From Epithemia pelagica (Eukaryota > Protista > Bacillariophyta), in NCBI GenBank assembly GCA_946965045.2, contig OX337237.1:1674001-1738000 (forward strand): a stretch of DNA of 64,000 nucleotides, written 5' to 3'. Below are positions 25,201-55,560 of this stretch, piece after piece. The position numbers and the translations under genes were made by a program. A model generated the notes under the pieces. The model was given only the letters and a program-made list of their open reading frames with translations, searched no databases and was not told where the DNA came from. The stretch's first letter is position 1. Each line of letters begins with the position of its first letter.

Positions 25201-25596
25201 AGTCGTGGCCGCAACAGCAACAACAATGCCGCCGGCTTTGGTCGATCTTCTGGTTCCGATTCTCGATTTGATCCGCGCTACAATGAAAACAACAACAGCA
25301 ACAACAATAACAACGTATATGGATCTAACACGAGTGGCGGTAGCAACTTGCCGATTCCGAGCTTTGCACCTCTCCCTACTTACAATGCTGGTGGAGGTGG
25401 TGCAGGTGATGACTTGAGTAGTGTTGGCGGAGACAGTGCCTACGACTCTCAGTACGGAAACAGCCGAGGAGGAAGTCTGTATTCCCAACAACAGCGTAAT
25501 CACAAGGATCACCGGAACCATCCTGCTTCCCTATCGGGATTCTATGTGGGCGGAGCTCCGGATGGAAGTTACTACAGCAGCAACAACGGAAAGTAG
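22300..25596 (+). CDS. UPF1: Regulator of nonsense transcripts 1 (SF1 RNA helicase)
   Basis: CH zinc domain (YACRYCGIHDP..LECYNC), QGPPGTGKT, DEATQ, GDHCQL, VDAFQGREKD, RRLNVALTRA. ATG at 22300. Confidence 0.97.
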   Translation: MDNLDDDDEEVVYRKDIVSFLDDDDEEEEEEEGEDDEEEEDELSDVSNGEEEEDDEDEEEEEEDEEDARLQELLLVDHYDEDNLPEYACRYCGIHDPCAVAKCVETQKWLCNGTQSGNGSHLVHHLVKSRSNQVQLHPESPLGDTILECYNCSARNVFVLGFVPAASASNSVVVLLCRVCVETVPALKDMDWDLSQWHPLIQDRQFLPWLLSVPSAALQARARQVGASQMTRLEELWKRKPTAQFADLFKKQTDGEGGEDDDGLELELTPTQQRYEDGFHYQNILAPLVKMEADYDRQMKESLTEESISVEWDVSLSGKWVAKFSFHRMTAESRVVVGDELRLKLGPGAQFLNQGQPWEGIGYVKSILDGQVELELRNSHSTSSSKDGNAKNKNGTNSNNNGGNIPQNIADDYIVEYIWKSTSYDRMQNALKTFAIDDTSVTGYIYHKVLGHSVEEQRIATAKVPTTEAEFSVPGLPPLNESQRLAVAAVLQRPLSLIQGPPGTGKTVTSATLVYHLTKQNMGQVLVTAPSNVAVDQLTEKIAATGLRVVRLASKTREAQNVTSVDHLCLHVMVPLASDEFQKLQRLKDDFGELTERDARKYRALRNKTEREILQAADVICCTCVGAGDPRLKHLRFRQVLIDEATQAIEAEALIPIAMGAKQVVFVGDHCQLGPVVMYKPAAKAGLTQSMFERLVLIGNRPIRLQVQYRMHPALSEFPSNMFYEGSLQNGVTEADRELLTTPGYTGKEDFPWPVPGKPMFFYSILGMEEISASGTSYLNRTEASYVEKIVTHLLRMGVTPSQIGVITPYDGQKKYVFEHMRRAGPLVTTLYETIEVASVDAFQGREKDFILVSCVRSSESQGIGFLSDPRRLNVALTRARLGIILLGNPRVLSKNPLWAALLLHFKEHECLVEGPHLQNLQACAHMTFPRPKRDPARDPRYAFTALARGGWDVVRWDESAHYNHHHSRGRNSNNNAAGFGRSSGSDSRFDPRYNENNNSNNNNNVYGSNTSGGSNLPIPSFAPLPTYNAGGGGAGDDLSSVGGDSAYDSQYGNSRGGSLYSQQQRNHKDHRNHPASLSGFYVGGAPDGSYYSSNNGK

Positions 25597-37221: not shown

Positions 37222-37299
37222 AGCATATCCAGGATGCAGAATGTCCGTTGGCGCCCGTCGTCCGTCGTGCCTTTCTGTTGTGTGGCCAACTGCCCCCCC

Positions 37300-37554
37300 T
37301 TACTGTGCTTAAGCTAATTTGGCGATTGCTGACAAGAAGATGAATGAACTGACACATGACTGACTCAGAGACCAAGAATCAAAGGACCAAGCCCAACCAG
37401 ATTCGTACGTATGTTGAATCAAGAAGATCTATCACCTTTGGTGATTTGGTTGGGATCGAATGTTGATCGGGTCACTGTCTTTCAGGTTGATTGTTGGTTG
37501 AGGTGCTATACGTTGCAGGTATTGTATCTCTCCTTGTGATCATCTGTTTTTGTT
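37300..37554 (+). repeat. Repeat A1 (255 bp)
   Basis: Identical by eye to 46110-46364. Confidence 0.95.
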
Positions 37555-37624
37555 CAGGTTGATTGTTGGTTGAGGTGCTATACGTTGCAGGTATTGTATC
37601 TCTCCTTGTGATCATCTGTTTTTG
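37481..37624 (+). repeat. 72-bp tandem duplication at the A1 end
   Basis: ttcaggttgattgttgg...tttttg occurs at 37481 and 37553; A2 has only one copy. Confidence 0.95.
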
Positions 37625-37657
37625 TTGCTTTTGTCGTTGCGCCCCGCCACTGCTCCC

Positions 37658-40495
37658 ATGTCTTCGTCCGGTTTCTCTGCTCGTGCGTCGCTTTATCGCG
37701 ATTTGCGTTCTGGTTCGCGTCCGCGTTCCGATTCCCCGGTGTCTTTTCCGCCTCCTGCTCCACCTGTGGGTCCGTCTCCTTCGGGCTCGCTTGCGGTGGC
37801 TTTCTCGGACTTAGGCTTGGGAGTGGGCGTTTCGACTGTGCAGGACTCGTCTGGGCTGGCCCCTGGCGCTCGCGCTGGTGGGTCTGCCTCGGATATGGGG
37901 GGGGATTTTGTGTCTATCCCTCCGGGCCGTTCTTTTGGTGACCAGTTCCTCGCGGACACTGGCGCCATCACGGACCCGGGGGCTAGTGTCGAGAGTCGCG
38001 AGTCTTTCTCCTACGGCGGAGGACTCTCTGACTCTGAGTTGCTCGCAGCGACTTTGCGTGCGGAAGCGCGTTATCCCGGTGATACGCGTGAGACTGCGGC
38101 TGCATTGAAGTCGGAGTCTGATCGCGAGCAATCGTCTTTGTTTCAGTCGATTGCTAAGCCGTCAACTGTGCGGGACAAGAGCCTGTTTGTGGACTACGGG
38201 ATTGCGAACTCCGCTACGGAGTCGCGTGGCGTCAAGTTTCAGTCGGACGTCAAGTCCAAACTAACGAATGGTGAGCCCCTCAATTCTAACCCGAGTGTTG
38301 TTGAGTTGCAGAATTCGGTTTCTTTAGTAGCGATAGATTTACAGACTGAAGTTTATTGTGGTGCGGTTGTGGGAGTAGCTGGAAAGTTTTGTTTGCACCC
38401 TGTGGGCAAATGCCCGAAGAAATCGCATCGCAAGGCCCCTTCGTTCCTTGGAAGTTTGAGCGAACAAGGGTTGAAGGAGTGCCTTTTCATTTGTGTCCCT
38501 GTTCCCAAGGGGAGCGCTCAGGGCACGCCGCCGACGTTGGCTTTTCAGGACCCGTTTCTTGATTCGAGTCGTCTCTCCCGTTCCAAGGTGCAAGAGATGA
38601 CGCAAACCCACAAGCCTGTCTGGCTGTGGTCATCCATGTTTGCTATGTTGAGTGGAGAGGTTCAAGGGAAGAATGTGGCCTCAATGTCCGGAGCCGGAGG
38701 ATCGTTTCCTGGCACGCCGTTGCGTCATCGGACTCTGGATCAGATTCAGGAAGATGCGACCCAGACGGCTTTTACGCCAGCTCGTCACCTGGAACTGGAA
38801 GACGTAGAGATACCATCTCCCGTGAGTGAAGGAAACGAACTTGAAGATGTAGACAGTAAGTTGGATGACACCACTTTCAAAGATCGAGTGGCTCACAACA
38901 CACTGGCCACGTCGCAAGTGCATCGAGCCATGGCGGGGGAACTTACTACCATGCGCTCTCGTCAAGTTGAGCAAAACCAAGTGCTTAACATGTTGGTTGA
39001 CAAGGTCAACGTCCTTAGTGGCCTCTTGGGAGCTCCACCGGATGACTCTGCAGCCACCACCGTCTGGCAAGCCATCAGTGAGTGGCAAGACCAAGAAGAA
39101 AAGAAAATCAATCCGGCGCTGCTCGACGCGATTCGCGAGACACAGTCTCTGCATGGGGCCAGTCTCCAACGCATGTACGAGTCGATTAACGCGTTGAGCT
39201 CGAAGATGCAAGATATGAAAACTGAGGCCCTCCACTCGTCAAGAAAGGAAGTCGTGGCATTGATCACGGCCGAAGTCAACAAGGCCATTTGGGCCGAATT
39301 ATCCAAGGCGTCTCCCACGTTGAAGGTTGCTGAGAAATTCTTTCTTCGCGGTGGATTGTCGGATTTCGAGCACCATATTCGAAAGACGACTGCGGATGCC
39401 GTCGCGGCCGCTGGGGGCAACAATGGGCAATCGTCACTGTTTAATTTGACTCAGCCAGAATTGGAAGATGTGAAAAAGCTTATTGCCAAGTTGCAAGAAG
39501 AAGGAGAACAGAATAAAATGAGGTTGATCGATTTGGAAGCGCGTACCGAAAGTTACTCTGTTGAAGTAGAGGGCTTTCAGTTCGCTTCATTGTCTCAAGT
39601 CACTGCTTTTGTGTCGTCCCATGGAATCGCTCCTGGTGTCTTAAAGTTCTGCGACGCCATCAGCCTTATGGAAAAATCGACCACGGGCTCTCAAAGCTAT
39701 GCCGAAAATGTGGACGCTCATTACCGCGGGCAACGCTCCAACATGGAGTCTCCAAGTGATCAAAAGGGTGTTTATTCGTTCCAACTGGTAGCGCCGACTG
39801 CGCTAGCCGGAACACCAGACCAAGCTCGGGTCAATCCAAGGAAGCTGTCCAAAATGGAGACATATCAAAAATTTAAGGGCTCAGGAGCCCGTGACGCAGG
39901 TGCAGCCAATACCATTCGAAAGATGATTGCGGATAAATGCCCTGCGTTGTTAGCGGAAGTTGAGAACTCGACGATGTCTCGAGACGCCAAAGTCATCGCA
40001 CGTTTTCTTCTCTCCGAATCCCGAAGTTTTCTCGACTCGTTGTTTATTTTCATGAAGGACCAGGTCGAGGACTATGGCTCGGACACCAACTTGTCCGAGG
40101 TCAGACGTTGGGACCTGGTCCAAAACATCACTCGAATCGTTTTCGAGGTCATCAGTCAGCCCCGAAGAACCTGTAGCGAGATCACTCTGAATCAGGCTAC
40201 ATCCCCGGAACGCGCACCGGAGCTTCTTTGGGCGGTGCTTCAAGCACATCGCTTGCAAAAGGAGTTTTTAGACCACAATTTTAAAAACCACCCAAAAGTT
40301 GGACCGATGCTGACACACTTCCTGCTCGATGTGGTCAGCTTCCACGACGACGTCAATCCCATTGTGGATGATGTGAAGAAGGCGCTGAATGATGCACAAC
40401 AAGCGAAGAGGAAGGTTGACGCAGTAGAAAGCCAGGTAAAGAATTTGCAATCGCGACTGCCGTCCAAGAAAACCAAACCGAATGAACAACAATGA
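37658..40495 (+). CDS. Gag-like ORF1 of element 1
   Basis: ATG at 37658. Cys/His knuckle CGAVVGVAGKFCLHPVGKCPKKSH, coiled coils, and a C-terminal FKNHP motif shared with element 2 ORF1. Confidence 0.75.
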   Translation: MSSSGFSARASLYRDLRSGSRPRSDSPVSFPPPAPPVGPSPSGSLAVAFSDLGLGVGVSTVQDSSGLAPGARAGGSASDMGGDFVSIPPGRSFGDQFLADTGAITDPGASVESRESFSYGGGLSDSELLAATLRAEARYPGDTRETAAALKSESDREQSSLFQSIAKPSTVRDKSLFVDYGIANSATESRGVKFQSDVKSKLTNGEPLNSNPSVVELQNSVSLVAIDLQTEVYCGAVVGVAGKFCLHPVGKCPKKSHRKAPSFLGSLSEQGLKECLFICVPVPKGSAQGTPPTLAFQDPFLDSSRLSRSKVQEMTQTHKPVWLWSSMFAMLSGEVQGKNVASMSGAGGSFPGTPLRHRTLDQIQEDATQTAFTPARHLELEDVEIPSPVSEGNELEDVDSKLDDTTFKDRVAHNTLATSQVHRAMAGELTTMRSRQVEQNQVLNMLVDKVNVLSGLLGAPPDDSAATTVWQAISEWQDQEEKKINPALLDAIRETQSLHGASLQRMYESINALSSKMQDMKTEALHSSRKEVVALITAEVNKAIWAELSKASPTLKVAEKFFLRGGLSDFEHHIRKTTADAVAAAGGNNGQSSLFNLTQPELEDVKKLIAKLQEEGEQNKMRLIDLEARTESYSVEVEGFQFASLSQVTAFVSSHGIAPGVLKFCDAISLMEKSTTGSQSYAENVDAHYRGQRSNMESPSDQKGVYSFQLVAPTALAGTPDQARVNPRKLSKMETYQKFKGSGARDAGAANTIRKMIADKCPALLAEVENSTMSRDAKVIARFLLSESRSFLDSLFIFMKDQVEDYGSDTNLSEVRRWDLVQNITRIVFEVISQPRRTCSEITLNQATSPERAPELLWAVLQAHRLQKEFLDHNFKNHPKVGPMLTHFLLDVVSFHDDVNPIVDDVKKALNDAQQAKRKVDAVESQVKNLQSRLPSKKTKPNEQQ

Positions 40496-43400
40496 GAAGT
40501 ACAGCGCCCATCCAAAAGATTAAAAAGGGAATCAAACACACAGGAGGAAAATCCTCTCACGGCTCTTCAAATTCAACGCAGTGAAAGCAGCAACGCCGAA
40601 ACTTACTCCTCGTGGATTCGACGCACAGTATCTTTAACACCGGGAGAGATGAGTTTGGGAGTGGTGTCAGATGGCATGCCTGCGTGGCTGTTTCTGTCTG
40701 ACAATTTGACAAACAGCAAACTCAAGTGGTTAATGTTGCCTGACAACCAACAACACTGGGAGAATTTGATACCGGTTGGACTTGAAGTTCATTGGTTGAC
40801 AGCAAGCGAAGAAAGTGAATGGAACCTGCGGTCTTTGGAAGAAGCGCTGGGACGATGCCCTGCAACCGACGTGTTGGTGTTTGAAGGGAAATACAGACCA
40901 CCCAGGGCAAGCTCCAACTTTTGGGACCGAGAAACAAGGTTGATTGTATCACAGCGGACACCAAGAGGCAAAGCACCGCCTGGATGGGACACCTCGTCTC
41001 GAGCTCTCAGTCACCATGAATTAGGGGGTGTGACCAATTGGAAGAGTTATTTTCATGTCTGGATGCGGTCGGCCGAATCATAATGCGACCCGAAGGAATT
41101 TTGGAACTCGGACTTATTGCATGGGGCCAATAGTTCTTTCGGGGATCTTATCGACAAGACAAAAACGGGAAAGCGAGTGCACCCTGATCGGGAAGAGGTT
41201 TCGATTCCCGGAACGGTGGATTGTGCTACAGTTCAAAGAAAACGAAGAAAGTTGTGGGTCTTACCCACAGTGTTTGGAGTCAACGCTGCCACCAGAAGGA
41301 AGTTGCTGGTTACAGAGGCTACTGCGTGCCTTGATGTGCCGGTCTCTTTGATCAAAGAATTGAATGAACCCACTCGGGAGGTTATTGTTCGTGAATTGTC
41401 CGGGCCTATCAAAGTGGCAGCGACAGTAGGAGCATGCATCGTCGAGTGGGCGAGAAAGAGTCGTAGACAAGAGAGAACAACGGAAGCAGGAGCAGCGTCT
41501 CCACAAAAAGAAGAAACAGAACTCATCCCTGATGAACCAAACGGTCGAGAAGCAAGATCGGTCTACCATCGAGATAGAATGCGAGGGTACCAACGATCTG
41601 CAAGTGAAGGCCAGGGCACTACCGCGGAGAAGGCAGTCAAACATGACAAAGCCGCCGTTCCGGTAGAATTATGGGACGATCGGGTTCGATATTTGTTGGG
41701 TCTGTCCAAATTGACGGATCGCCATCTGCGAGCTTTCGCGTTGTTACGACGAGCGATGTTGCAGCGATGGAGGCGCAACGTTGTTCGCTCGTGGGTTGAT
41801 TGGTGGAACAAATATAATCATAGAATAAAACATAATGAACCGCGATGGTGGAAGCTTTTGCAAGAGCGAGGTCGCCAAGCTTGTCGTCAAGCGATGCAGG
41901 CCGATTTTTGGAGTTGGCCAAATGGGTCAGGTGTATTCTTTTGGCGGTGGCCACAAGAATACATGCGTGATGTTGCCTTGGGAGTACCTCCTCTGTGGAC
42001 AGGTGTACCTCGGCAAGTGTTGGAACGACAACAAGGCCTTGGCGATGAAGAAATGATAAACAAAATAAAAGAGAAATTGGACGATGTTCGCCAGAAGAAA
42101 TATGTCAGCGAAGGAACCTGGAAGGCAACCATGAACTACTTTGCGGTGCCGAAAGGAGAGACGGACATAAGAATGGTGTATGATGGAACCAAGAGCGGTC
42201 TTAACGATTGCTTATACGCACCTTGGTTTCCTCTCCCAGATGCCGACGTCTTGATCCGTACCTTGGACGATTCCTACTGGTGTGTAGATAACGACTATGG
42301 AGAAATGTTCTTAAATTTCTGGATCCATCCGGAACTACAAGAGTTCAGCGGAATGGATCTCACACCACTATTTGGGGAAACCGATTCGGGGGAACTTCAT
42401 ATTGAGGGGTGGCTCCGTTGTCCTATGGGGCAGAGTCCGTCTCCTTTCAACACGGTACAGCAGACGCGGCGACTCAAGCGCGTTATGTTGGGTGACCCGA
42501 GTGACGAAGAAAACGTGTTTCGATGGAAGAAAGTACGATTGAATCTACCCGGAACGATGAGCTACCAACCCGGAATTCCCTGGATAGCCAAGTACAGATC
42601 CACGGGAGAGTTGGCAGCCGATGCCCATGATTATGTGGACGATCTACGAGGAACTGGTCCCACAGCCGAAGATGCCTGGCAAGTAAGTTCTAAGATTGCC
42701 AAAACAGCGTCGTTTCACGGCGTACAAGATGCGGCACGTAAACGACGAGAGCAGACACAGAGTCCGGGAGCATGGGCTGGAGTAGTCTGTGGTACCAGTC
42801 CTCGTCGTCCCTTCAAAGCTGTGACCCAAGAAAAATGGGACAAGACGAAGGGAGAAATAAAACGTCTACGCGATGAAGTGGACAACCTGGAGATGGCCGC
42901 TCCTAAAAACACTGTTAACAGCAAAGTCCTTGAACAGGTTGCAGGGTTTTTAAATCACATCGGCCGAGCTTATGGAACTCTACGGCTCTACCTCAATGGA
43001 GTATATGCATCCTTGAACAGTTGGAGGCCTGATCGAGACCACGAGGGATGGAAGATCGGCTCTGACACATTGCATTTGGAAGAGCCCTTGGGCCTGAAGA
43101 CGCCAGCCCGAGTTCGAATGGTGCCCCGAATGCGATTTGATGTCGAAGCTCTGGAGTTGTTGACCAGCAGCTCTACCCCTCCTCAGAGATTGTTGAGGCC
43201 TGACAAACAAGGCGCCGTTGCCCGGTATTACTTTGGTGATGCCTCGGGAGCTGGCTTTGGCATGTCAGGGTGGACACCGGGTGAAGACCAAATCGAGGTA
43301 GATTTCGGATCTTGGGATGCCAAAGCAATGGATTGGACTTCTTCCAACTTTCGTGAATTGGCCAACATTGTAATGAAGATCGAGCAAATGGCAAAAGAAG

Positions 43401-44227
43401 GCCGTCTGAATGCGTTGACGGAAACCTTCATTTTTACCGACAACATGCACGCGGAGTCGGCATTTTATAGAGGGACTGCGAAGTCTCCCGAAGTGTTGCA
43501 CCTCATGCTCCGGTTGCATCGAGTCCTGATGAGAGGAGAGGCGTTCATTCATGTCGTTTGGGTGGCTGGGAAAAGGATGATATCCCAAGGCACCGATGGA
43601 CTCTCCCGATCTGATTTGACAAGCGGAGTCATGCGAGGTGAAAGCATGTTGAACTTTGTTCCGCTTCATCAGTCAGCTCATCAACGTCAACCCAAAGTAC
43701 TCTCGTCCTTGTTGCGCACCATAATCGACGACACCGACGATGTACGCGTCTTGAATCCTGAGGACTGGTTCACCCAACCAGCCGAAAGGGATGGCATATT
43801 TGTGTGGATGCCTCCGCCGTGTATTGCCGATGTGGCAGTCTTCATGATGGCGGAGGCATGGCATCTTCGTCCGTGGAATACCCATGTTTTCATTGCACCG
43901 TCATTGATGAGTGGAACGTGGAGGAGGATGTTGTCCAAGACGGCGGATATGTTTTGTGTTCTGCCGTTTAATAATGAATTCTGGCCCAAAGATTTGGAAC
44001 ACGAACCTCTAACGTTTGCGTTCGTATTCCCCCTTTTGAACAGAAATCCTTGGCGAGTTAAGTTCTCGGAGCTTCTCCGCGATGAACGAAATGTCTTGCG
44101 TCAGATGCACCGGAAGTCTCTCCCACACGCGAGGGATTATCTGCGCAAACTTTGGCTATGCGCGCGGGCACTGGAAGCCATGCCTGGGGGCGTATCACGC
44201 TCATTGCTATGTAGTACCGGGAACTGA
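40496..44227 (+). CDS. Pol of element 1 (MTase-like, Trp-rich, RT, RNase H, Dam-like), with one internal TAA
   Basis: Same frame as gag. RT motifs DNDYGEMF, MGQSPSPF, YVDD (42632); RNase H GDASG, NFREL, FTDN, DGLSR; WMPPP block. Track ORFs 40649..41083 and 41117..44227 are one frame split by the TAA at 41081. Confidence 0.9.
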
Positions 44228-45620
44228 CCCCTTTCCTAGAGACCTCCAACCTAGACAAATGGAAATGGATGCATTTGGAAACATGGTGCCCGAAGCTGAG
44301 GGATGGGAGACTACAGCTACTGAAAAGAAGGCTCTGTCTGAATGGTTTTGTCAAGCTCGCCCGGGAGATCATCTAATGACTCCGTTCCAGTGTGAATTAT
44401 GTCACTTTAGAAATATTTACAAGCGTGATCCGGTACCGACGAGCGAAGAAGACAAGTGGTCGCTCAAGTGCATGATACGAGCGAACCTCGATGCCTTTTG
44501 GGCGCGACGTTCGAGCACAGTGCAAGGTAATACAAGGGAAATGGCGAGATCAATGCGCATTCTCGCCACACTCCGGATTCCATCTCCAACGACTGTTCAC
44601 CGGCGAGGACCTTACCCGATTGAAGACACTCTTGGAATGGTACCAGCGATGGTTTCGCTGCAACGGTCGCTAGACAAAGGAAGAAATTCAAAGACGATCC
44701 AGTGGGACACAATGAGAGGAGTACGATCCTCTTTCTCAAACTTTGTTCATACAACACTCACCGGGAGCAAAGGAGCTGTGTTGAGTGATGGGAAACGCTC
44801 GACCAGGATTACCGATAGTGTGGCAAACTCCCTCTGGTTCAAGCGCTTTATGGATGGATGCCATGAGCGCATGGGAGATGTCAAGATACAAGATGCCGCG
44901 CTGACAATTGATGTGTTATTGGAGCTCGAGAGATGTTTGGAGGAAGAATTTCAACGAATGGACTCAAACAGTACCATGGAAGTCCGATTCGAAGTGATCA
45001 CTCTCGGCGCGGCTTTGGTCCTGGGATTCTCAAGTGCTCTGCGTGGCGAAGAACTGGGTCATATCCGGCTTATGGAAAGTCGAGAACTGACCGCAAGGGG
45101 ATTGAATCATCCGAGGTACCCTCATGTCCTCTTAGCCCTTGAAGGAAGGTTCAAGGGATTGATTGCGAGACAAAGGCATAAGATTCCGCTAGCACCAGTG
45201 TCTCAGTCAGGAATTCCGAACGAAAAATGGTTATTGCGATTGGTTGAGCTTTATGATGATCTAAATATCAGACATGGACCTCTGTTTCGTGCCACCCCAC
45301 GGGGAGATAAATCAATCACCATTCAACAACTGGATTTGTGGCTGAGTGAGACCTTGATGGCAGTACAAAAGCAGAGGCCAGATTTGTTGGGAACGGAATT
45401 GGAATCTCTGGCTACTTACAGCTTTCGGAGATCCTTGAGAAGAGGTTCCACCACCCAAGCGAGAAATCAGAAGGTTCCAAAAGACGTCATTGTCATCAAT
45501 AACCGGTGGAGGTCTCAGGACCAGGCTCGAGGACGCTTCGCACAAGCCGACATGATCGATCTGTATACTGATGTGGTAGCAGCTTTGGCCACACTACTTC
45601 AATACTCAACCGCATTATGA
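44082..45620 (+). CDS. Tyrosine recombinase of element 1 with an N-terminal Cys-rich region
   Basis: ALRGEE (Arg at 45042), RSLRRG, NRW, and a terminal DLY (Tyr at 45564). It overlaps the pol 3' end in another frame. Confidence 0.88.
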   Translation: MNEMSCVRCTGSLSHTRGIICANFGYARGHWKPCLGAYHAHCYVVPGTDPFPRDLQPRQMEMDAFGNMVPEAEGWETTATEKKALSEWFCQARPGDHLMTPFQCELCHFRNIYKRDPVPTSEEDKWSLKCMIRANLDAFWARRSSTVQGNTREMARSMRILATLRIPSPTTVHRRGPYPIEDTLGMVPAMVSLQRSLDKGRNSKTIQWDTMRGVRSSFSNFVHTTLTGSKGAVLSDGKRSTRITDSVANSLWFKRFMDGCHERMGDVKIQDAALTIDVLLELERCLEEEFQRMDSNSTMEVRFEVITLGAALVLGFSSALRGEELGHIRLMESRELTARGLNHPRYPHVLLALEGRFKGLIARQRHKIPLAPVSQSGIPNEKWLLRLVELYDDLNIRHGPLFRATPRGDKSITIQQLDLWLSETLMAVQKQRPDLLGTELESLATYSFRRSLRRGSTTQARNQKVPKDVIVINNRWRSQDQARGRFAQADMIDLYTDVVAALATLLQYSTAL

Positions 45621-45678
45621 AAGAAGGAGAAAAGATTTGCTGAGAAGAATTTTATCAAGACGATACGGGGGGGGGGGA

Positions 45679-46109
45679 AAGGAGTGTACTCGTACACTCT
45701 GTCGTTTGCAAACCCACTGTTGGAGGATGACGGGGTTCGGAGTTATTGGGGTTCTGGTTTGCTTGCACTCTGGCAGGTGCTTGCAAAGTGGACAGTGATA
45801 GCGGAGGTTCGCCCCGCGTGCTGACTCGTGATTCGTCTCGAGGACCACCGGCTTCGGGACTCAGAATTTTCTACAGGGGGCGAGAGCAAGACCAATCTTG
45901 ACAGCGATTGGTTTGCGTCGATTTTGATGGCTGTTGCACTATGATGTGACTACCCATCGCTCCATTGGGAAGGAGTTCCCCTTACCTTAGCACAATATAA
46001 TCTAGGATTGTATGTGACACATCCCAACGTCTAACATCAAGACCTATTGCCACACTGGTTGAAGAGTTGGAAGAAGTTTTGGACATTCATCGGAGAGGAG
46101 TCAAGTGCC
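45679..46109 (+). repeat. Repeat B1 (431 bp)
   Basis: Matches 46389-46629 plus 55371-55560 with 2 mismatches seen (45710/46420 and 46087/55538). Confidence 0.95.
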
Positions 46110-46364
46110 TTACTGTGCTTAAGCTAATTTGGCGATTGCTGACAAGAAGATGAATGAACTGACACATGACTGACTCAGAGACCAAGAATCAAAGGACCAA
46201 GCCCAACCAGATTCGTACGTATGTTGAATCAAGAAGATCTATCACCTTTGGTGATTTGGTTGGGATCGAATGTTGATCGGGTCACTGTCTTTCAGGTTGA
46301 TTGTTGGTTGAGGTGCTATACGTTGCAGGTATTGTATCTCTCCTTGTGATCATCTGTTTTTGTT
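46110..46364 (+). repeat. Repeat A2
   Basis: Copy of 37300-37554, directly abutting B1. Confidence 0.95.
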
Positions 46365-46388
46365 TTCCACCCTCCCGCCCTGCGTTAT

Positions 46389-46629
46389 AAGGAGTGTACT
46401 CGTACACTCTGTCGTTTGCGAACCCACTGTTGGAGGATGACGGGGTTCGGAGTTATTGGGGTTCTGGTTTGCTTGCACTCTGGCAGGTGCTTGCAAAGTG
46501 GACAGTGATAGCGGAGGTTCGCCCCGCGTGCTGACTCGTGATTCGTCTCGAGGACCACCGGCTTCGGGACTCAGAATTTTCTACAGGGGGCGAGAGCAAG
46601 ACCAATCTTGACAGCGATTGGTTTGCGTC
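46389..46629 (+). repeat. Repeat B2, left part (241 bp)
   Basis: Copy of 45679-45919, ending at gtttgcgtc. Confidence 0.95.
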
Positions 46630-47147
46630 TCAATGTACACCCAAGTTAAGATGGGACCAAGGAACATGGTCAGGCCACGTCATGAAGGCTGAGCATTGGC
46701 GTTGGAGTGCAAGTCGGGCGGTCCACCCAAAAGAAGAGCCGGCCTCGCTGTCACACAAAGAATGAGGCAGAACGGGCGTGCAACTCGGAAGAGGAAATTC
46801 CAAAAAGAACATGTGCATCCCATCTACTGCGACAAAGCCTCTTCCATTCCATATCTCAAAGTGGACTGCCTCCAAATAGAGGATCGTCCGATTCAAGAGG
46901 CATGGGCACTCTTGAATCAAACAACAATGCGCCAACAATGGATCCCTAATGGAGCGCGACATGCGATCCATGACAAACAAGCAAAGACGCAGCAAACAAA
47001 ACAAGAGGGACACGGAGAGCTCACTCTTTGGGTTTTCTACGGTTCGTCGGCGAAGGTCTGATCCCCTTTGGCGCCGTTCTTGATTTCTAAAGAGTTGAAA
47101 CTCCAACTTTCTCTGCTCACTTCGCTCTCTTACTTACTCCTTCTACC

Positions 47148-49604
47148 ATGTCGGTTCCTCCTCCTCCTCCTCCTGCACAGGATGCTGATACGCTCCTCTC
47201 TGCGCTCGTTGCTTCGGCCTCCGTGGCTAACACCCCTGCGGCTGGGGCCGCCCGTCCTTCTACGGCGGCTCTGGGGGGGGATCGCGGTCAAATCTCCTTT
47301 GCTGCTGACCCTCCCACGGATGAGATGATGGTTCAAGGCACGGAAACCGCATTGTTTCCTGAGAGCACCATGGACCCTACTGTCCTTGGACGCTCTACCG
47401 GTGGTAGTAAGTTTGGTGTCGTGGCACTTTGCGCAAGCGAATGTGCAGACAAGTTGTTGTGTTTGGATCTCAAGCGCGGCGGGGCAACCTTTTGCATCGA
47501 CCCCAAGTGCGCTAAAGCCGGGGACCATGGAACTGGTCTAGCTCCCGTCGACTTGGGACCCTCAGGAGGATTGTTCATTACCAAGAACCCTGCCTCTGCC
47601 TTTTGCACTCCGGTTATCTCGTTGAGTGAGATCTCTCAGGAGACACTGGACCAAGTCCAGCATGAAAAACACACTATGGAAGAATGGACGAAGAAATTCG
47701 TTGCTATGAAACGTCTTAATCAAGTTAAGAAAGAAGGTCACCTGGATGCCAGTCTGAAGGAAACGGAGCATAAAATCTCCAAGGCTGACTCCCTCCGTAC
47801 CCCGTTTACACTCAAGAAAGCTACCTCTACCTCCACCTCCTTCGTCGTTGAGAATTTCTCTCCTCACCACAAGATTTTGGACGGGGATCTACAGGATGTG
47901 ATTCGGAAGATTACGGTTGACTCCTCCTTGGTTCCGATAACTCTTCGCGAAATCGAAGACTCGGTGATGGAAGCAGGAGAAGTGATCCAGACTTTGTCCT
48001 TGGAACAACAAGCCATTTCGCGTCAAAACAGCACAGCCGTTGAAGCTCTAGGAATCAAATTTGATAAACTGTCCATGGAAATTGGACCTCGAGAGGACTT
48101 GCCGGACGAGTACCAAGCCCCGACCCTCTGGGGAATCATCTCTTCGATGATTCGTTCCATTCAAGAATCCTCTCCCTTGACGACTGAATCTCACCAACGT
48201 GCTGTGGATAGTCGCCTTGCCGCGGTTGAGTCCTCTGTTGCTACTTTCTTCTCAACCATCCAAGGCCAAGTCTCTTCGAAGTTGTCCTCGACCCAAGTTG
48301 AGACTCGTAACTCGGTAGACAAGCTTCGAAACCAATTCGTGCAAGGCTTCAAAGGAATCCTCGATCGCTTGTCGGCCCTTGAATCCAACACGACGCTCAC
48401 CAACCGTATCTTGACCATTGAAAACAAGATGTCGTCCCATGAAATTTTGCTTAGCCAACTGGGAACCTCCCCGCAGATGTTTGGTGCAACACAGACGACA
48501 TCCAACACAGGATCACCAGCCCTTCAAAACAAAGTCACTGCTCTTGAAGGGGAAATCGCGAATTTGAGGGCCCTCTTGGGAGATGCCAATTTGGAAATGC
48601 AACGTCTCAAGGGCAAGGTCGACACTTCCACCATCAAGTTCGGAAATCTCGGCGTAGCAACGGTTGATGACTGCAAAGCCTGGGTGGCCCTCAAGTTCGG
48701 GTCAAGAGCGTACGGTCTTTTGTTTGATCTCAACTTGGTGCTTGAATGGTGTGCCCCGCAGGAGAATGGGGATGTTTTATCCATGCTGACTACCATGGAA
48801 AAACGACACAAGATGCAGATCGCGACAACAAATGAAGCTCGAGCGATTTATGCGATGAAGAATGAATTTCCCCAGCTCTTGTACAAAGATTTCCCTGGCA
48901 CCGGGCGGGACCCTTCGTTTCTCACTGCGATGAAAGAGTACTCGGATTGGGAGTCGCCCGAGACGGGAGTTCGTGACCGAATCCTGAATCGTCTAGGCAA
49001 CATGAATTCTATGTTCGGAGAACAAATTGCCACAACGATGGCCAATGAACCTGAAGCCCGTTCCTTAGCTTTATCTATGCTATCTGTTTCGGTGGGTTGT
49101 TGCCGTGAATTGGTAACCTATTTTGATGAAACCATGAATGAACTCACTATCAAGTCGAAGTTTACTACCCGCAAGGCCTTCAGTTTGGTTACCCAAGTGG
49201 TCAGGCGCTTCTTCATGGACTTATACAAGGTTAGGGCTCAAGTCTACTCGTCCCTTTCGACCACTGATAGTGCTGGCCAGTGCGCATGGATACTCTACGG
49301 CGTTCTTCGTACCCACGATGTTATGAGCGATTACGTTGAAGCTCGTTTCAAGAACCATCCGTCCGTTTCAAGCGAATACATTCGCTTCCTTTCCACCAAC
49401 TCGGGCTTCGAGTCCCTCAAGACGCTAGAAGATCAAGTGGAATCCTTGAAGCGTACCTCTGCTCAGTTGGTCAAAGATGTTACCTCGGCCAAGAAAGCTT
49501 CCGACACGGCCAGCAGCACTGTGGACAGTGTCAAAAAGGATGTGAACGAATTGAAGAAACAAGCCCAGCGTCGTGGTGGATCTACCAACGGTGACAAGAA
49601 GTGA
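47148..49604 (+). CDS. Gag-like ORF1 of element 2
   Basis: 818 aa. Knuckle CLDLKRGGATFCIDPKCAKAGDH, coiled coils, FKNHPSV. Confidence 0.78.
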   Translation: MSVPPPPPPAQDADTLLSALVASASVANTPAAGAARPSTAALGGDRGQISFAADPPTDEMMVQGTETALFPESTMDPTVLGRSTGGSKFGVVALCASECADKLLCLDLKRGGATFCIDPKCAKAGDHGTGLAPVDLGPSGGLFITKNPASAFCTPVISLSEISQETLDQVQHEKHTMEEWTKKFVAMKRLNQVKKEGHLDASLKETEHKISKADSLRTPFTLKKATSTSTSFVVENFSPHHKILDGDLQDVIRKITVDSSLVPITLREIEDSVMEAGEVIQTLSLEQQAISRQNSTAVEALGIKFDKLSMEIGPREDLPDEYQAPTLWGIISSMIRSIQESSPLTTESHQRAVDSRLAAVESSVATFFSTIQGQVSSKLSSTQVETRNSVDKLRNQFVQGFKGILDRLSALESNTTLTNRILTIENKMSSHEILLSQLGTSPQMFGATQTTSNTGSPALQNKVTALEGEIANLRALLGDANLEMQRLKGKVDTSTIKFGNLGVATVDDCKAWVALKFGSRAYGLLFDLNLVLEWCAPQENGDVLSMLTTMEKRHKMQIATTNEARAIYAMKNEFPQLLYKDFPGTGRDPSFLTAMKEYSDWESPETGVRDRILNRLGNMNSMFGEQIATTMANEPEARSLALSMLSVSVGCCRELVTYFDETMNELTIKSKFTTRKAFSLVTQVVRRFFMDLYKVRAQVYSSLSTTDSAGQCAWILYGVLRTHDVMSDYVEARFKNHPSVSSEYIRFLSTNSGFESLKTLEDQVESLKRTSAQLVKDVTSAKKASDTASSTVDSVKKDVNELKKQAQRRGGSTNGDKK

Positions 49605-52600
49605 CGGTGTGCCGCGCCTAAACTAGATGAAAACGTTTCGTATGTTGACTCTGGTTTAGACGCTGGTAGTATTGCATCATCTTTAAGCAGTCTGGGACCT
49701 GGCTCTCCTGGTGGTGTTGGTGCCAAACGTCCAGCCTCACCACCCCCTAGCATTGTCGTTTCGGTCAAACGCTCCAGGCATCGTCCTACTGATCGCGGAT
49801 CACGGATCTTCCGAAGTGATTTGTCGTGTCTTATCCTTGGTCAAACATCCCTTTCGTGGGGACTTGGTCTCAGTCTCGGGGACTGGCACGGCATTTACAT
49901 GTTGGCTGCTGAGTATGAAGCACGACGAGAGAACCCCTTTTGGCGTGCCGTTTTGCTTCATTTTGGGGATAAGCTCCACTTAGTCCCAAGCATCGATGTT
50001 GTTCTGGGACGAGGGATCATTTCGGTTGTACTGTTGGAAGGCGATCCTGATTACCTCGCGTCTTCCTTGCTTTTCGTCCCTCCGAGTTGGCCTGTTTTAT
50101 TGTTGCTTCCTTCGGGATGGAGTCGCCCCACCCTTCCTCAAGTCCAATGGTTGTCGGTCACCCATCGTCAATGTGGTGGTGTCACGACCGCTTGTGTCCA
50201 CGTTGGGCGTCGTGGTATACCTCCGTTGTTTTTCCATGTCACCACGCGGCGCACGCTGGGTTCGATCATCTCGCATTCAATCCGTCCTTCCCCGTGTGGG
50301 GCGCCCACTATCCCTGATCCTTATTACTCCTGTGACGATCAGTTGCACACCCGTGCTCTTTTCAAGTCTATTCGGTTGTCCACACACTTTTCAAAGACGG
50401 GTTGGGGTTGTCGTCCGCTTACTGATGAAGAAATTGGAACGGCGTTCGATTTACCGCTTTGGGTCATCAATGATTCCATTGCTTTTCGTTGGTGGTTCTC
50501 CCACATGATTCATCCGCGAGTTACTCCCATCAAGATCCCAGCTTTAGTGTTGAATTCCGCTTTACCACACTTGGACCCTGTTCTGATTCACCACACTAGT
50601 ACCGCCGGCAACAAACATGGTGGACCCTCATCCCCGTTTCGTCCCTGCAAACGCGGCCGTTGGTTGACCCCTCTTTCGGAAACTGTCCAAGATGGCGTCC
50701 TGGGTACCACCTTTTCCTTCTTGCCCGCTTTTCTCCCTCATGACGCGTGGCTCGACGATTCCAAGATTGCGGATATTGCGGTTAAGGCAGACGACGCCCT
50801 GGCCCCTTTTTGGATTTGGGATGGGCGGATTCGGGGCATCTACCCTTGGATCACAGATTCGGCGCTTTCAGGCTTCCGCTTGTTGGCTTTGCTTTGGTGG
50901 CGTCGCTCCTTGGTGCAGAGTTTCTTGGCTTATTTACGCTTGCGGTTTGGTGCGAATTGGCCAGCCTTAGTGGCCTCTTCACCACTCCAGGGGGGGGAGG
51001 AGTCTTTCAATTTCGATTCGTTTCCCGTCCTGCTAGCCGCTGGCCGCTGTGTTTTGTCCCAACTTCTTCGTTCCACCTGGTGGGACTGGGATGCGGGTTC
51101 TTCGTTGATTTTTTGGCGCTGGAACGGCCTCTCCCAACAAGCAGATGCCTGGTTTGGCACTCCCATCCATGTCACCGATGCTCTTCCTTCTTATCATCGG
51201 CGTCAGCGTGCTCCTCCTGCGGAAATGCTCCCTCAAGTTTCCAAGAAATTATCGACCGTGCTCGAGCGTGGTTATTTGGACGGTGTCTCTCCTCCCTCCA
51301 GCATGACCGACTATTTCGCTGTTCCAAAAGGCGACAATGACATTCGGATGGTCTATAATGGCACAAGCTGCGGGTTGAATAAGTCTCTGTGGGCACCGAA
51401 TTTTTGGTTACCAACGTCTGAGTCGGCTCTACGACTATTGACCACCGATTCCTACTGTGGGGACATGGATTTGGGGGAAATGTTTTTGAATTTCCCCATG
51501 GACGTACACCTTCGACCCTTTGCTGGTGTAGACATGAATCCTGTCCAGTCACACCTCACCCCAGAAGCTACAGCCCTCTCTCCTGAATCTGGTAGGGTGC
51601 GGTGGAATCGTTTATTTATGGGTATGCTTCCGAGTCCGTTCCACGCCGCCCGCCAATACTACCTGGCTGAGGAAATAGCAAAAGGAGCATCACAGGATCC
51701 AACCAATCCGTGTGGTTTTGATTCAATTCGCTTCAACATCCCTGGCTCCGCCGATTACACCCCAACTTTGCCTTGGGTCATGAAGTGGAGCTCTAGACTC
51801 GACAACATTACGGGAGATGTAGTTACCTACATGGACGACTTGCGAACGGTCGGTTCCTCAGCCGAACATGCATGGCAGGTGGCACGCCAACTGGGGGCTA
51901 GATTGCAATATCTAGGAATTCAAGACGCACCTCGAAAGCGGAGACCACCTTCCAAAACTCCCGGCGCATGGGCTGGCAGTGTACACCATATCTCAGCCAC
52001 GACCATATCAAAAACCCTCACCCAAAAGAAATGGGACAAGGGCAAGAAACTCCTGGAAAAATACGTGGATGCATATACCAAGAGTGACTCTCCCACGTTC
52101 GATCACAAGCAAATGCAACGAGACGTGGGCTTCTTCGTTCATCAAGCGCTGACCTACAATTCGCTAATGCCCTTCTTAAAGGGATTCTATTTGACTATGA
52201 ATGTTTGGAGACCCGGGCGCAATGGCGAGGGATGGAAGCTGTCAACAAGGGAGTGGCTTTCCCAGTTACAAGAAAAGTTTGGGGACGAAGAAATCAACAC
52301 CATTTGTGGTTTCTTAGACACAGATGAAGATGAAGACTCGCATGCAGAATCAACCAACAAAGAAAAGGACATTCCACCAGCACGGGTCAAGGCAGTTCCG
52401 AGGCTGCGAACCGATGTACGAGCCATTGCGGTCATGCTAGGTTCAGAGGATCCTCCCAAGGTCCAAGTCAGGTCGGACACCATCTTTGTTGCATTATTCG
52501 GATGTGGCGATGCTTCGGGATGTGGATTCGGGGCAGCCTTCCAACTCCCTCAAAAGAAACTGTCGTATAGAGTGGGAGCATGGGGAAAGGACATCGTGGT

Positions 52601-53531
52601 AGGTGAATCTTCCAACTGGAAGGAGTTTACCAACTGTGTAGAGTCGCTGGAGGAAGAAGCGTCCTTGGGCCATTTGGACAACACAGAAGTCTTCTTCTTC
52701 ACAGACAACTCAACCGTCGAACGTTGTTTCTACAAGGGCTCATCATCAAGCCCAAAACTGCTAGAACTAGTGATCCGTCTACGACGACTAGAGATGCGCC
52801 ATGCAATACGGCTGCATATCTCCCACGTATCAGGAAAGAGGATGATCGCTGTGGGAGTGGATGGCATTTCTAGAGGGCAATTGAACGAGGGAGTCATGGC
52901 TGGGACTCCCATGTTATCCTATATTCCTCTTCACAAGACCCCATTCCAGATGTCCGAGAATCTGTTCGAATGGGTTCGTTCTTGGTTGGGACCCAAAGCA
53001 GAAGCACTAACCCCCATGGACTGGTTCACAACAGGCCACGACATCCGGGGATGGTCCCTCCCAACAGAACATAACAAACTGTCCCTGCCTATCCTTCGGC
53101 CAGGACATTTTGTGTGGGCTCCGCCTCCAGGAGCAGCTGATGTGGCTCTCGAGGAATTGAGAAAAGCGCGTCACAAAAGACAATCTTCCATGCATGTTTT
53201 TCTTTGTCAACGTCTGCTTACTCCGAAATGGTATAAGCAGTTACACAAGGCATGCGATTTGGTTATGGAGATCCCTGCTGGAACTTCTTTTTGGCCTGAA
53301 GGAAATTATGAACCTCTCATCGTTGGTCTTGTTTTTCCTTTTATTAGGGCACAGCCGTGGCAATTGCGGGGCACCCCAAAAATGTTCTCAATGGACCGCC
53401 AATTGCGCAAATTGTGGAAAGAAGATCCAGTGGGTGGAAGGGATCTTCTGCGGAAATTTTGCGTTCAGTGTTGGAAAATGCAGTCCATGTCGAAACGCAT
53501 GGTGCGCAAGTTGTTATTCTTCGAACGATGA
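49605..53531 (+). CDS. Pol of element 2 (MTase-like, Trp-rich, RT, RNase H, Dam-like), intact
   Basis: Open frame directly after the gag TGA. Motifs DMDLGEMF, MGMLPSPF, YMDD, GDASG, NWKEF, FTDN, DGISR, WAPPP. Confidence 0.92.
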   Translation, partial: RCAAPKLDENVSYVDSGLDAGSIASSLSSLGPGSPGGVGAKRPASPPPSIVVSVKRSRHRPTDRGSRIFRSDLSCLILGQTSLSWGLGLSLGDWHGIYMLAAEYEARRENPFWRAVLLHFGDKLHLVPSIDVVLGRGIISVVLLEGDPDYLASSLLFVPPSWPVLLLLPSGWSRPTLPQVQWLSVTHRQCGGVTTACVHVGRRGIPPLFFHVTTRRTLGSIISHSIRPSPCGAPTIPDPYYSCDDQLHTRALFKSIRLSTHFSKTGWGCRPLTDEEIGTAFDLPLWVINDSIAFRWWFSHMIHPRVTPIKIPALVLNSALPHLDPVLIHHTSTAGNKHGGPSSPFRPCKRGRWLTPLSETVQDGVLGTTFSFLPAFLPHDAWLDDSKIADIAVKADDALAPFWIWDGRIRGIYPWITDSALSGFRLLALLWWRRSLVQSFLAYLRLRFGANWPALVASSPLQGGEESFNFDSFPVLLAAGRCVLSQLLRSTWWDWDAGSSLIFWRWNGLSQQADAWFGTPIHVTDALPSYHRRQRAPPAEMLPQVSKKLSTVLERGYLDGVSPPSSMTDYFAVPKGDNDIRMVYNGTSCGLNKSLWAPNFWLPTSESALRLLTTDSYCGDMDLGEMFLNFPMDVHLRPFAGVDMNPVQSHLTPEATALSPESGRVRWNRLFMGMLPSPFHAARQYYLAEEIAKGASQDPTNPCGFDSIRFNIPGSADYTPTLPWVMKWSSRLDNITGDVVTYMDDLRTVGSSAEHAWQVARQLGARLQYLGIQDAPRKRRPPSKTPGAWAGSVHHISATTISKTLTQKKWDKGKKLLEKYVDAYTKSDSPTFDHKQMQRDVGFFVHQALTYNSLMPFLKGFYLTMNVWRPGRNGEGWKLSTREWLSQLQEKFGDEEINTICGFLDTDEDEDSHAESTNKEKDIPPARVKAVPRLRTDVRAIAVMLGSEDPPKVQVRSDTIFVALFGCGDASGCGFGAAFQLPQKKLSYRVGAWGKDIVVGESSNWKEFTNCVESLEEEASLGHLDNTEVFFFTDNSTVERCFYKGSSSSPKLLELVIRLRRLEMRHAIRLHISHVSGKRMIAVGVDGISRGQLNEGVMAGTPMLSYIPLHKTPFQMSENLFEWVRSWLGPKAEALTPMDWFTTGHDIRGWSLPTEHNKLSLPILRPGHFVWAPPPGAADVALEELRKARHKRQSSMHVFLCQRLLTPKWYKQLHKACDLVMEIPAGTSFWPEGNYEPLIVGLVFPFIRAQPWQLRGTPKMFSMDRQLRKLWKEDPVGGRDLLRKFCVQCWKMQSMSKRMVRKLLFFER

Positions 53532-54918
53532 GGGTCGGTTCTTTGTGGCTTCCAGGAACTTGATGGTGGAAGAGTCGGACGCGGACCGGATCGTAGCAGC
53601 CACTTGGAGAGCGCGTACAAAGGACCGACGAGAAGATTATAGTCATGCACGAGCGGGTGATCACTTGATGACCCCTTTCGAGTGTGATTGGTGCATCTTT
53701 CGAAAGTTGAGAGGTGAGGAACCGGACCCGAAAAGCGTGCAAGACAAGTACTTGATGGTGTGTGTGAGACGCATGAATCTCGATGCATTTTGGAGTCGGG
53801 CAACAAGCACGGTTGCGCAAAACACTAGAAATGCCAAAAAGATGATTGAGAAGTCAATGAAAGTGGGAATCCCTTATGGACCGTTCATGAGCCATGGCCC
53901 GTTCCCGAGTTACGATCATTGTGGGTACCAAGTGGCATATTTGATGTTGGACAGTTCGTTGGACGAAGGAAAGTATCATACGGATAGAAAGCAATTTGAC
54001 ACCATCCGGAAATTTCGATCGGTGTACTCCAATCACGTGAGAGCAACACCGGCCACTTTGGTTGATAATCGACCCCTGGTTTTGACGGACAATAATGGGA
54101 AAGCCTTCTCTCGGTTGGGCCAAGACGAGAGCGGATCATTATGGTTTTCAAGATTTGTTGAAGGTTGTCGCCGACGGATGGGCCAAGACTGGCGCCCGGA
54201 CCAAGCAATATCTAGCGAGTTGGTTGTTGCGTTGCTGGGTTCCTTGGAAGAAGAATTGAGGCACGCAAACAATGTGACGGACCCATTTGTGACGGTTATG
54301 GCGGGAACCTTTTATGCTGTGTCTTTCGCTTTGTCCTTGAGAGGGCCGGAGGGGCTGCTCCTTGATTTAGGAGCCATGACTCGATATGCAGATCTTTACA
54401 AGGACCGGGATTGCGTGGTGGTTTGTCTTTGGGGCCAATTCAAAGGCGAGCATTCTGAACGGGCTCATCTCCTCCCCTGCTGCAATGTAACAGGGAGTGG
54501 AATCAAAGTTCGCCAATGGTTGAACAGAGCAATGGTCTTGTCTCGAGACATTGGACGAACGACCGGGCCGTTGATGATGGATCGAAAGGGTGTACCCATC
54601 GCGCCACGAATGCTGGATGACATCCTGCATCGACATTTGTGCAAACTTTTCGACAACGATAAAAACCTTTTTCCTCTGACTGTCATCAAAGGGGAAGAGG
54701 ACATCGTCACAAAATACTTTGTGTTCCGATCTTTCAGACGGGGTTGGAATACAAGAGCAAAAGAGGTGGGCGTCGAGCAGCCAGACCTTGAAACTGTCAA
54801 CCGATGGAGAATAAAGGAGAGAGCAGGAGCCAATAAACCAGGCGGGGCCATTGACCACATGTATGCAGACCTGTCGATGCTTGTGGGGCCGTTTCTCCGG
54901 TACAGTTCTGCAATGTGA
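53194..54918 (+). CDS. Tyrosine recombinase of element 2 with an N-terminal Cys-rich region
   Basis: SLRGPE, RSFRRG, NRW, terminal HMY. It overlaps the pol 3' end; the true start is uncertain. Confidence 0.88.
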   Translation: MFFFVNVCLLRNGISSYTRHAIWLWRSLLELLFGLKEIMNLSSLVLFFLLLGHSRGNCGAPQKCSQWTANCANCGKKIQWVEGIFCGNFAFSVGKCSPCRNAWCASCYSSNDEGRFFVASRNLMVEESDADRIVAATWRARTKDRREDYSHARAGDHLMTPFECDWCIFRKLRGEEPDPKSVQDKYLMVCVRRMNLDAFWSRATSTVAQNTRNAKKMIEKSMKVGIPYGPFMSHGPFPSYDHCGYQVAYLMLDSSLDEGKYHTDRKQFDTIRKFRSVYSNHVRATPATLVDNRPLVLTDNNGKAFSRLGQDESGSLWFSRFVEGCRRRMGQDWRPDQAISSELVVALLGSLEEELRHANNVTDPFVTVMAGTFYAVSFALSLRGPEGLLLDLGAMTRYADLYKDRDCVVVCLWGQFKGEHSERAHLLPCCNVTGSGIKVRQWLNRAMVLSRDIGRTTGPLMMDRKGVPIAPRMLDDILHRHLCKLFDNDKNLFPLTVIKGEEDIVTKYFVFRSFRRGWNTRAKEVGVEQPDLETVNRWRIKERAGANKPGGAIDHMYADLSMLVGPFLRYSSAM

Positions 54919-55370
54919 CGACCAAACCAAGATTCTCGGTGGAGGGGGTTTCTGGAACTGGCAAGTTGCGTTGAGGCTGACATGGCAAGGCCTCTTCGGT
55001 TCTTGTCCATTAGAGAGAGAGTTTGAGCCGATTGCGTCCCCTGTCCGTTTCCGCCTTTGCGATTGCATGGTGCAACCTGATCGCGTTGGTGGGCCACAAG
55101 CGGATCCAACAGGAGTCTTGATTTGGGTCTTTCTTTTTGTTCTTTTGGGCCGGTTCCCCTGTCTGAGCATTATGCCAGATCGGACCCTGAGTGGTGAAGG
55201 ATTACCCTTCCCCCCACAACACAACCTAAACTAGAGTTTACGGTTGCGAGAATCTAATGAGATAAGTTTATGATTTGATTCTGCTGTTTGTCTTTGTGTT
55301 TGCGCGAGAGAAAGGGATCCTGAGGTTGGATGGCGACATGGTGGGTGCTGAGCAGGGTTTGCGAGTGCCC

Positions 55371-55560
55371 GATTTTGATGGCTGTTGCACTATGATGTGA
55401 CTACCCATCGCTCCATTGGGAAGGAGTTCCCCTTACCTTAGCACAATATAATCTAGGATTGTATGTGACACATCCCAACGTCTAACATCAAGACCTATTG
55501 CCACACTGGTTGAAGAGTTGGAAGAAGTTTTGGACATACATCGGAGAGGAGTCAAGTGCC
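55371..55560 (+). repeat. Repeat B2, right part (190 bp)
   Basis: Copy of 45920-46109 with one mismatch. Confidence 0.95.

Follow-up and report, generated by a model that had tools for sequence, protein, structure and literature searches.

What would a cytosine methyltransferase fold do at the start of a retrotransposon polymerase once the residues required for methylation have gone? This question is raised by a stretch of 64,000 nucleotides (nt) from the diatom Epithemia pelagica (assembly GCA_946965045.2, contig OX337237.1, positions 1,674,001 to 1,738,000 of the forward strand), referred to below as the window and numbered from its first letter, in which two retrotransposons, here named element 1 and element 2, lie one within the other on the + strand. 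At the start of Pol in both elements is a segment that a first-pass annotation had described as an apparently dead C5-cytosine-methyltransferase-like domain, located at 40649..41455 in element 1 and at 49791..50570 in element 2, where the frame is intact and strand 1 begins at 49821. The analysis reported here points with high confidence to a domain that is predicted to have kept the C5-methyltransferase fold and to have lost C5 catalysis.

The conserved collinear blocks quoted for the two segments were all located, in frame and in the same order, namely DVLVFEG (40868), SHHELGGVT (41009), FGDLI (41138), RKLLVTE (41297) and GPIKVA (41402) in element 1, and SVVLLEG (50022), THRQCGGVT (50160), LGSII (50256), RPLTDEE (50412) and TPIKIP (50523) in element 2. 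In element 1 the blocks are real but the open frame that had been assumed for the segment is not, a TAA codon at 41081..41083 having been overlooked. Sequencing evidence on copies and joints comes from 3 runs (one study, two samples), in all of which this position reads GAA in a second copy or allele present at about equal depth. Considering that this sister copy or allele has GAA and that the close relatives P0008-P0010 are open through the domain with no stop, the TAA represents damage specific to this copy, the family being unbroken; the element 1 copy in the window is itself unable to make the whole domain.

When compared directly, the two segments are no more alike than expected by chance, the Smith-Waterman score being 37 against 33 +/- 5 for shuffles (209 of 1000 shuffles reach 37), and hhalign of one small segment profile against the other gives a probability of 2%. 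Their relationship is instead apparent at the level of the family profile: since a profile of 124 relatives, from which 6 element-1-like sequences had been excluded, still finds element 1 (E 8e-7, against 0.15 for the best of 500 shuffles), the two segments are judged to be homologous. With hhalign, aligning the family profile with element 1 yields 96.7% in local mode and 98.2% in global mode.

Structural models were generated with AlphaFold2 without templates, yielding a predicted local distance difference test score of 93.7 and a predicted template modelling score of 0.90 for the element 2 segment (125 alignment rows), and 89.1 and 0.88, respectively, for the element 1 segment (68 rows, with X at the stop). 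Both were compared with 48,161 chains by means of the exhaustive structural aligner VIA-align. For element 2, the 19 chains with Z of at least 8 are all C5-methyltransferase folds and the first unrelated chain scores 7.3; for element 1, ranks 1-19 are all C5-methyltransferase folds and the first unrelated chain scores 8.5. The best match is M.HhaI (10mh) in both cases, with Z 14.4, a root-mean-square deviation of 4.0 and 238 aligned for element 2, and Z 17.3, 3.6 and 252 aligned for element 1. Foldseek placed C5-methyltransferase folds at ranks 1-9 for element 2 and in every listed row for element 1, and the named top matches in BFVD are likewise of C5-methyltransferase type. The structural match encompasses the large domain with its seven strands, a small target-recognition-like lobe, and motifs IX and X. 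Because the match covers all of these, and the motif IX/X part is absent from other class I methyltransferases, the predicted fold is of the C5 type rather than a generic Rossmann fold, and the retention of this fold, as had been proposed, extends over nearly the whole length of both segments.

Relatives were collected by searching 1.84 billion sequences with a profile of 10 sequences (E <= 0.001), representatives being clustered at 50% identity. The family comprises at least 558 such clusters, the best 150 of which were examined; 130 of 159 proteins had at least 170 domain residues aligned, the other 29 being dropped, and some proteins in the set are near-duplicates of element 2. A follow-up search with a later profile (A3) returned 5 proteins, and a metagenome locus search found no relatives among 87 pattern matches. 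Among the best 150 of the 558, the search for relatives that retain the catalytic residues recovered none: the Pro-Cys (PC) of motif IV is present in 0/125 members and an ENV-like motif VI in 0/130. An FxGxG-like motif I occurs in 1/81 proteins, out of place, the consensus being F-E-x-x-P-x-W, and the RxR of motif VIII in 3/132, with a single Arg retained in 44%. Motif IX (R-x-L-T-x-x-E) is retained, with R208 at 93%, L210 at 92% and E214 at 96%.

The loss extends to the catalytic loop. From the motif IV Gly (95%) to the end of strand 5 the median span is 22 residues (15-26, n=60), compared with 41 in those comparison enzymes that keep PC and ENV (33/40 and 12/13 measurable), so that about 19 residues of the loop have been deleted and the Gly leads straight into a helix. 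Considering that C5 cytosine methylation proceeds through a covalent mechanism in which a Cys acts as the nucleophile, the absence of this residue excludes C5 methylation. The description of the domain as dead, which had been based on the missing Pro-Cys and ENV motifs, thus holds in a stronger form than that in which it was made, and on the models the domain would be a C5-methyltransferase scaffold without the chemistry, placed outside the active family.

What the family has kept is a set of near-invariant residues (W23, G84, H125, G129, G130, T132, R154, R208, L210, E214, P222 and P246), arranged in part as H125-x3-G129-G130-x-T132 and R208-x-L210-x3-E214, with R165 also kept. The corresponding landmarks in element 2 are the Gly at the motif IV position (50040), H-x3-GG-x-T (50163-50186), the Arg (50412) and Glu (50430) of motif IX, and the Pro of motif X (50526). 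A zinc site composed of H125, H158, C169 and H178 was considered and rejected, element 1 having only H125 of these.

Sequence searches leave the domain without a name. Pfam PF00145 gave no match in the window segments or in any of 148 relatives, PHROGs gave none either, PDB sequences, queried with one protein as well as with the A2 and A3 profiles, gave chance matches at most, and ESM Atlas gave no usable match for the domain. Two types of donor were tried by profile-profile comparison, neither with a significant result: a Dcm/HhaI-type donor (13 enzymes; E 0.015, block-shuffled controls reaching 0.0096) and a DNMT3-type donor (39 DNMT3-like phage or bacterial enzymes; E 0.044-0.077, against a column-shuffled best of 0.15). 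When motif blocks were slid along the comparison enzymes, the best score fell on the expected motif in 3/8 cases for the DNMT3-like set and in 2/8 for the Dcm/HhaI set; motif IX was the top-scoring offset in both sets (z 4.7 and 4.9), and the register of motif I agreed with DNMT3-like FDG enzymes. In terms of structure scores, HhaI, MpeI and DNMT3A are within 1 Z of one another for element 2, and DNMT3 is about 4 Z under HhaI for element 1. As regards membership of the DNMT3 clade, therefore, the motif I register is DNMT3-like, the profile comparison is non-significant, and the structure scores tie or favour HhaI.

The domain is closely tied to Pol. In all 53 matches having at least 120 residues beyond the domain, it is followed by the conserved Pol region, Pol coming first in none, and at most about 110 residues stand ahead of it in family matches. 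Pairwise identities of the domain and of downstream Pol co-vary (rho 0.80 for 40 proteins; 0/999 permutations as high), and the nearest neighbour by domain is also the nearest by Pol in 25 of the 40. This co-variation points to a single old capture followed by joint inheritance with Pol. Median pairwise identity of the domain across family members is 24%. Among relatives of element 1 the domain is 57-60% identical, the adjoining linker 20-28% and the reverse transcriptase (RT) 91-92%; the conservation of the domain well above that of the linker in this group is counted as evidence for selection.

In both elements, the first open reading frame (ORF1), its TGA codon (40493-40495; 49602-49604) and pol share a single frame, and the first ATG of element 2 pol (49899) is downstream of the part of the domain that forms strand 1 and helix A. 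Because of this in-frame TGA and the lack of an ATG before strand 1 and helix A in element 2, the whole fold is likely to be made by readthrough of the ORF1 TGA, from a non-ATG start or by means of a splice, readthrough being the presumed route. The residues directly past the ORF1 stop of element 1 have 45% identity to P0008, and no change is listed at this stop in the sister copy. The hairpin 3' of the ORF1 stop in element 2 is weak (z -1.55; 13/200 shuffles), and no RNA structure was found 3' of that in element 1. No RNA data set was listed as carrying the sequence, an outcome that has no bearing on whether it is expressed.

Which role could then be served by a fold without its chemistry? 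We tentatively favour, with chances judged a little short of even, a role as a putative module without enzymatic activity, by which the nucleic acid of the element itself would be held. An ancestral element would have captured one C5 methyltransferase, whose active site would have been lost early and whose domain would then have been kept by selection. Tyrosine-recombinase (YR) elements are described as encoding no protease in the accessible text of PMC3783388, and for this reason the domain would be expected to remain attached to RT and to act where RT acts. Produced at a low level through readthrough of the ORF1 TGA, its cleft between the large and the small target-recognition-like domains would grip the complementary DNA (cDNA) or the RNA-DNA intermediate, a grip that would be of use in transferring strands, in forming circles or in passing the intermediate on to the recombinase. 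Since the domain is fixed to Pol, it would most simply act in cis on the replication intermediate. The conserved arginines (R2, R112, R154 and R165) and the mildly basic net charge (median +3, positive in 45/60, compared with +4 and +5 in the comparison enzymes) fit nucleic-acid binding, being compatible with it rather than proof of it.

A number of points weigh against this reading, in its structural as well as its functional part. Many alignment rows are common to the two models, which are hence non-independent, and homology to C5 enzymes rests on predicted structure, because sequence-only profile comparison (E 0.015-0.08 with the 13 Dcm/HhaI-type and 39 DNMT3-like enzymes) aligns little past motif IX. 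The windows for the motif searches were set by secondary structure and alignment, without superposed coordinates, and the remaining 408 of the 558 matches could include PC-bearing members. The net charge is mildly positive at most, and only +1 in element 1. Several of the invariant residues, such as the Arg and Glu of motif IX, are at positions that are structural in C5 methyltransferases and would indicate that the fold is kept rather than any role, and in M.HhaI some of the contacts with DNA are made by the loop that is deleted here. Among relatives of element 2, finally, identity is 56-67% in the domain and 47-72% in the linker, so that the domain shows no excess of conservation.

Of the other explanations, an anti-silencing decoy or methylation sensor survives best, although it is considered unlikely. 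An element-encoded dead mimic of a silencing enzyme, comparable to DNMT3L, would bind CpG of the new cDNA or the host methyltransferase and so keep new copies unmethylated, shielded from DNMT5-type silencing, or would read target methylation and steer insertion. Such a role is plausible because diatom transposons are silenced by DNMT5a-dependent CG methylation, as stated in the accessible part of PMC9998398, and one named family member comes from the diatom Epithemia clementina. Basic clusters resembling nuclear localization signals are present within 50 residues past the domain in 23/81 proteins, compared with 6.1 expected from shuffles, and suggest nuclear entry, which is however equally compatible with a module holding nucleic acid. 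CpG is not depleted in the elements, the observed/expected ratios of 0.95 and 0.84 being similar to that of the flanks (0.93); this likeness of element and flank means that the retained CpG indicates nothing specific either way. The constant association of the domain with Pol wherever it can be assessed counts against a decoy or sensor, which would share the low level of Pol.

That the domain would serve as a protein scaffold, mediating Pol dimerisation or the docking of Pol to Gag or to the recombinase while not binding nucleic acid, appears quite improbable to us: its best-kept residues do resemble a structural core, and in a product probably made by readthrough it has ORF1 on one side and RT on the other, but a predicted two-lobed fold with a small lobe and conserved arginines exceeds what a scaffold needs. 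Slight prospects are given to new chemistry, according to which the domain would be a different kind of enzyme, acting on RNA or DNA by means of His125 and of a Ser-Gly-Ser at the position of motif IV. The conservation of H125 (97%), T132 (92%), G84 (95%) and S83 (71%) speaks for such an activity, yet both window elements have Glu at S83 and Asp or Lys at S85, and the cofactor-loop Gly is Pro in 80% of members, and neither of the two window copies conserves it. The strand 6-7 loop, moreover, is where both H125 and T132 are located, at positions that are structural in C5 enzymes.

It is very improbable that the domain is a functionless relic carried along by the elements. Such a view could draw on the stop within the element 1 domain, on the 12 differences between this domain and that of the sister copy (7 of which are residue-changing), and on the faster evolution of the domain relative to RT; however, the stop is copy-specific, the adjoining linker decays much faster in the element 1 group, and the full fold and its invariant residues persist at the low median identity given above. 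An active C5 cytosine methyltransferase can be dismissed almost outright, for although the whole predicted fold is retained and the available text of PMC5890265 provides an active precedent from the same order of elements (SymbioDIRS-Dnmt3), PC and ENV are absent from every member examined and the catalytic loop is deleted.

Among known proteins, the C5 enzymes (M.HhaI 10mh, M.MpeI, Dcm, DNMT2, DNMT3A/B, DNMT5 and DNMT1) share with the present domain the full predicted fold and the retained R-x-L-T-x-x-E, and differ from it in that identity is 6-14%, motifs I, IV, VI and VIII are degenerate here, and the loop residues are gone. DNMT3L and DNMT3B3, catalytically dead DNMT paralogues, are likewise pseudo-enzymes on a C5-methyltransferase fold. 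They align over only 133-155 residues (Z 6.7-6.9). In the present domain it is instead the catalytic loop that is missing, motifs IX and X and the small lobe all being there, and the domain is both encoded by the element and fused to RT.

The closest retroelement is SymbioDIRS-Dnmt3 of Symbiodinium (de Mendoza et al. 2018, PMC5890265), which according to the available text has recognisable DNMT3 orthologues, two of which methylated CG in yeast. It is likewise a YR retrotransposon, its repeats following the order A-ORFs-B-A-B, and its Pol frame includes a C5-methyltransferase domain that is inherited together with RT, the likeness of domain in Pol being one at fold level only. The present domain differs from what is described there in being invisible to Pfam, in lacking the catalytic motifs in every member examined, in having lost the loop, and in belonging to diatom-type elements. 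The words 'diatom' and 'stramenopile' do not occur in the main text of PMC5890265; the legend of its Figure 2b mentions varying DNMT conservation, and its supplements may show degenerate DNMT domains. EpiLTRs, which are long terminal repeat elements of Cymbomonas and Euglena, carry a DNMT4-related domain, recognised by profile search, and an NPP-type DAM (bioRxiv 10.64898/2026.05.21.726589, as far as available). These EpiLTRs and DAM-TEs resemble the present elements in combining adenine- and cytosine-methyltransferase-type domains in one retroelement, and differ in that both such regions look degenerate here.

With Ngaro elements, as described in the accessible parts of PMC3783388, PMC8547959 and PMC12477816, are shared the A1-ORFs-B1-A2-B2 repeat layout (PMC3783388, PMC8547959), seen here in element 1, three ORFs, RT and RNase H motifs with an ORF3 that is YR-like by motif, and occurrence in stramenopiles. 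Differences are that no N-terminal methyltransferase-like domain is named in those parts, 'methyltransferase' occurring 0 times in the available text of PMC8547959, and that Pol of the present elements ends in a Dam-like region, a feature attributed in PMC3783388 to DIRS and not to Ngaro. The available texts of PMC12344493 and PMC12477816 likewise contain no mention of such a domain. No published account of a catalytically dead DNMT fold in the Pol of a YR element was found in a search conducted mostly by titles and abstract openings, subscription papers and Repbase reports being little covered.

The retroelement DNMTs published so far were recognised through profile searches and are regarded as enzymes whose task is to methylate the new copy. 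A family of this size that keeps the fold without the chemistry would make a C5-methyltransferase domain worth keeping for something beyond methylation, which bears on why other YR elements keep active DNMT and Dam-like domains. Captures of this kind are probably under-counted, given that Pfam does not recognise the domain. As it is small (about 250 residues) and confidently modelled, binding tests are straightforward.

The elements themselves are best explained as members of a large family of tyrosine-recombinase-type (Ngaro-like) retrotransposons. Catalytic RT motifs are present as YVDD in element 1 and YMDD in element 2; Pfam RVT_1 matches the RT of element 2 weakly (E 0.078) and that of relatives at 0.018 and 0.03, all below the cut-off, and RNase H is known by motif only. 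ORF3 retains the residues R, RSxRRG, RW and Y in both elements and has no match in Pfam, PHROGs or PDB sequences, its recombinase label being derived from motifs and position. It begins before pol has ended, in a different frame (44040-44250; 53161-53560), and its N-terminal stretch is Cys-rich in both elements, possibly a zinc finger. The Dam-like region at the Pol C-terminus (43800-44000; 53100-53330) is labelled by position and motif, with no library match; its motif is W-x-PPP, Asn standing ahead of PP in 1/29 proteins, and both methyltransferase-like regions of Pol may be non-catalytic.

Element 1 exhibits the Ngaro-type layout A1-ORFs-B1-A2-B2, together with an empty site. Repeat A1 (37298..37554; 257 nt) is identical to A2 (46108..46364); a partial duplication of 72 nt comes after it and extends to 37626. 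ORF1 (37574..40495; first ATG 37658), presumably gag-like from its position, is followed by the pol frame (40496..44227), which comprises a linker, the pseudo-DNMT domain, a conserved pre-RT region, RT, RNase H-like motifs and the Dam-like region with a degenerate xPP, labels beyond RT having been assigned by eye from motifs. Then follow the tyrosine-recombinase-like ORF3 (44040..45620), repeat B1 (45679..46109; about 430 nt), A2, and repeat B2, which is interrupted by the insertion of element 2 into a 5' part (46389..46629) and a 3' part (55370..55560; 191 nt).

Element 2 (46630..55369) is nested in this B2, as indicated by repeat comparison of the window, and no terminal repeats of its own were found. 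Its ORF1 (47091..49604; first ATG 47148), in which the TGA is followed by CGG, resembles ORF1 of element 1 in its C-terminal part; the pol frame (49605..53531) has 1308 open codons, and the tyrosine-recombinase-like ORF3 (53161..54918) has 34% identity to that of element 1. Summed contig depth is about 600-900 on element 2, whereas element 1 and the right flank are at about 100-130 (runs X2 and X3), which is a hint of extra copies and not a measure of them. A joint between 47111 and 54947, observed in 2/3 runs, may represent an internally deleted derivative of element 2.

Together the two elements form a composite insertion (37298..55560), delimited by repeat comparison and by an empty-site contig, seen in 3/3 runs, that links 37297 directly to 55559. 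Its ends have only CC in common, a 2-nt core as expected from insertion by a recombinase. Since this 18-kb insertion is missing from another haplotype or strain in 3/3 runs, it is polymorphic and probably recent. Its start coincides with the stop-to-stop boundary of a host ORF (35809-37299, - strand). Host genes in the window, identified by eye, are eukaryotic, an example being a UPF1-like helicase at 22075-25596, and a tandem array with a 105-nt period, bearing no relation to the elements, occupies 33695-34219.

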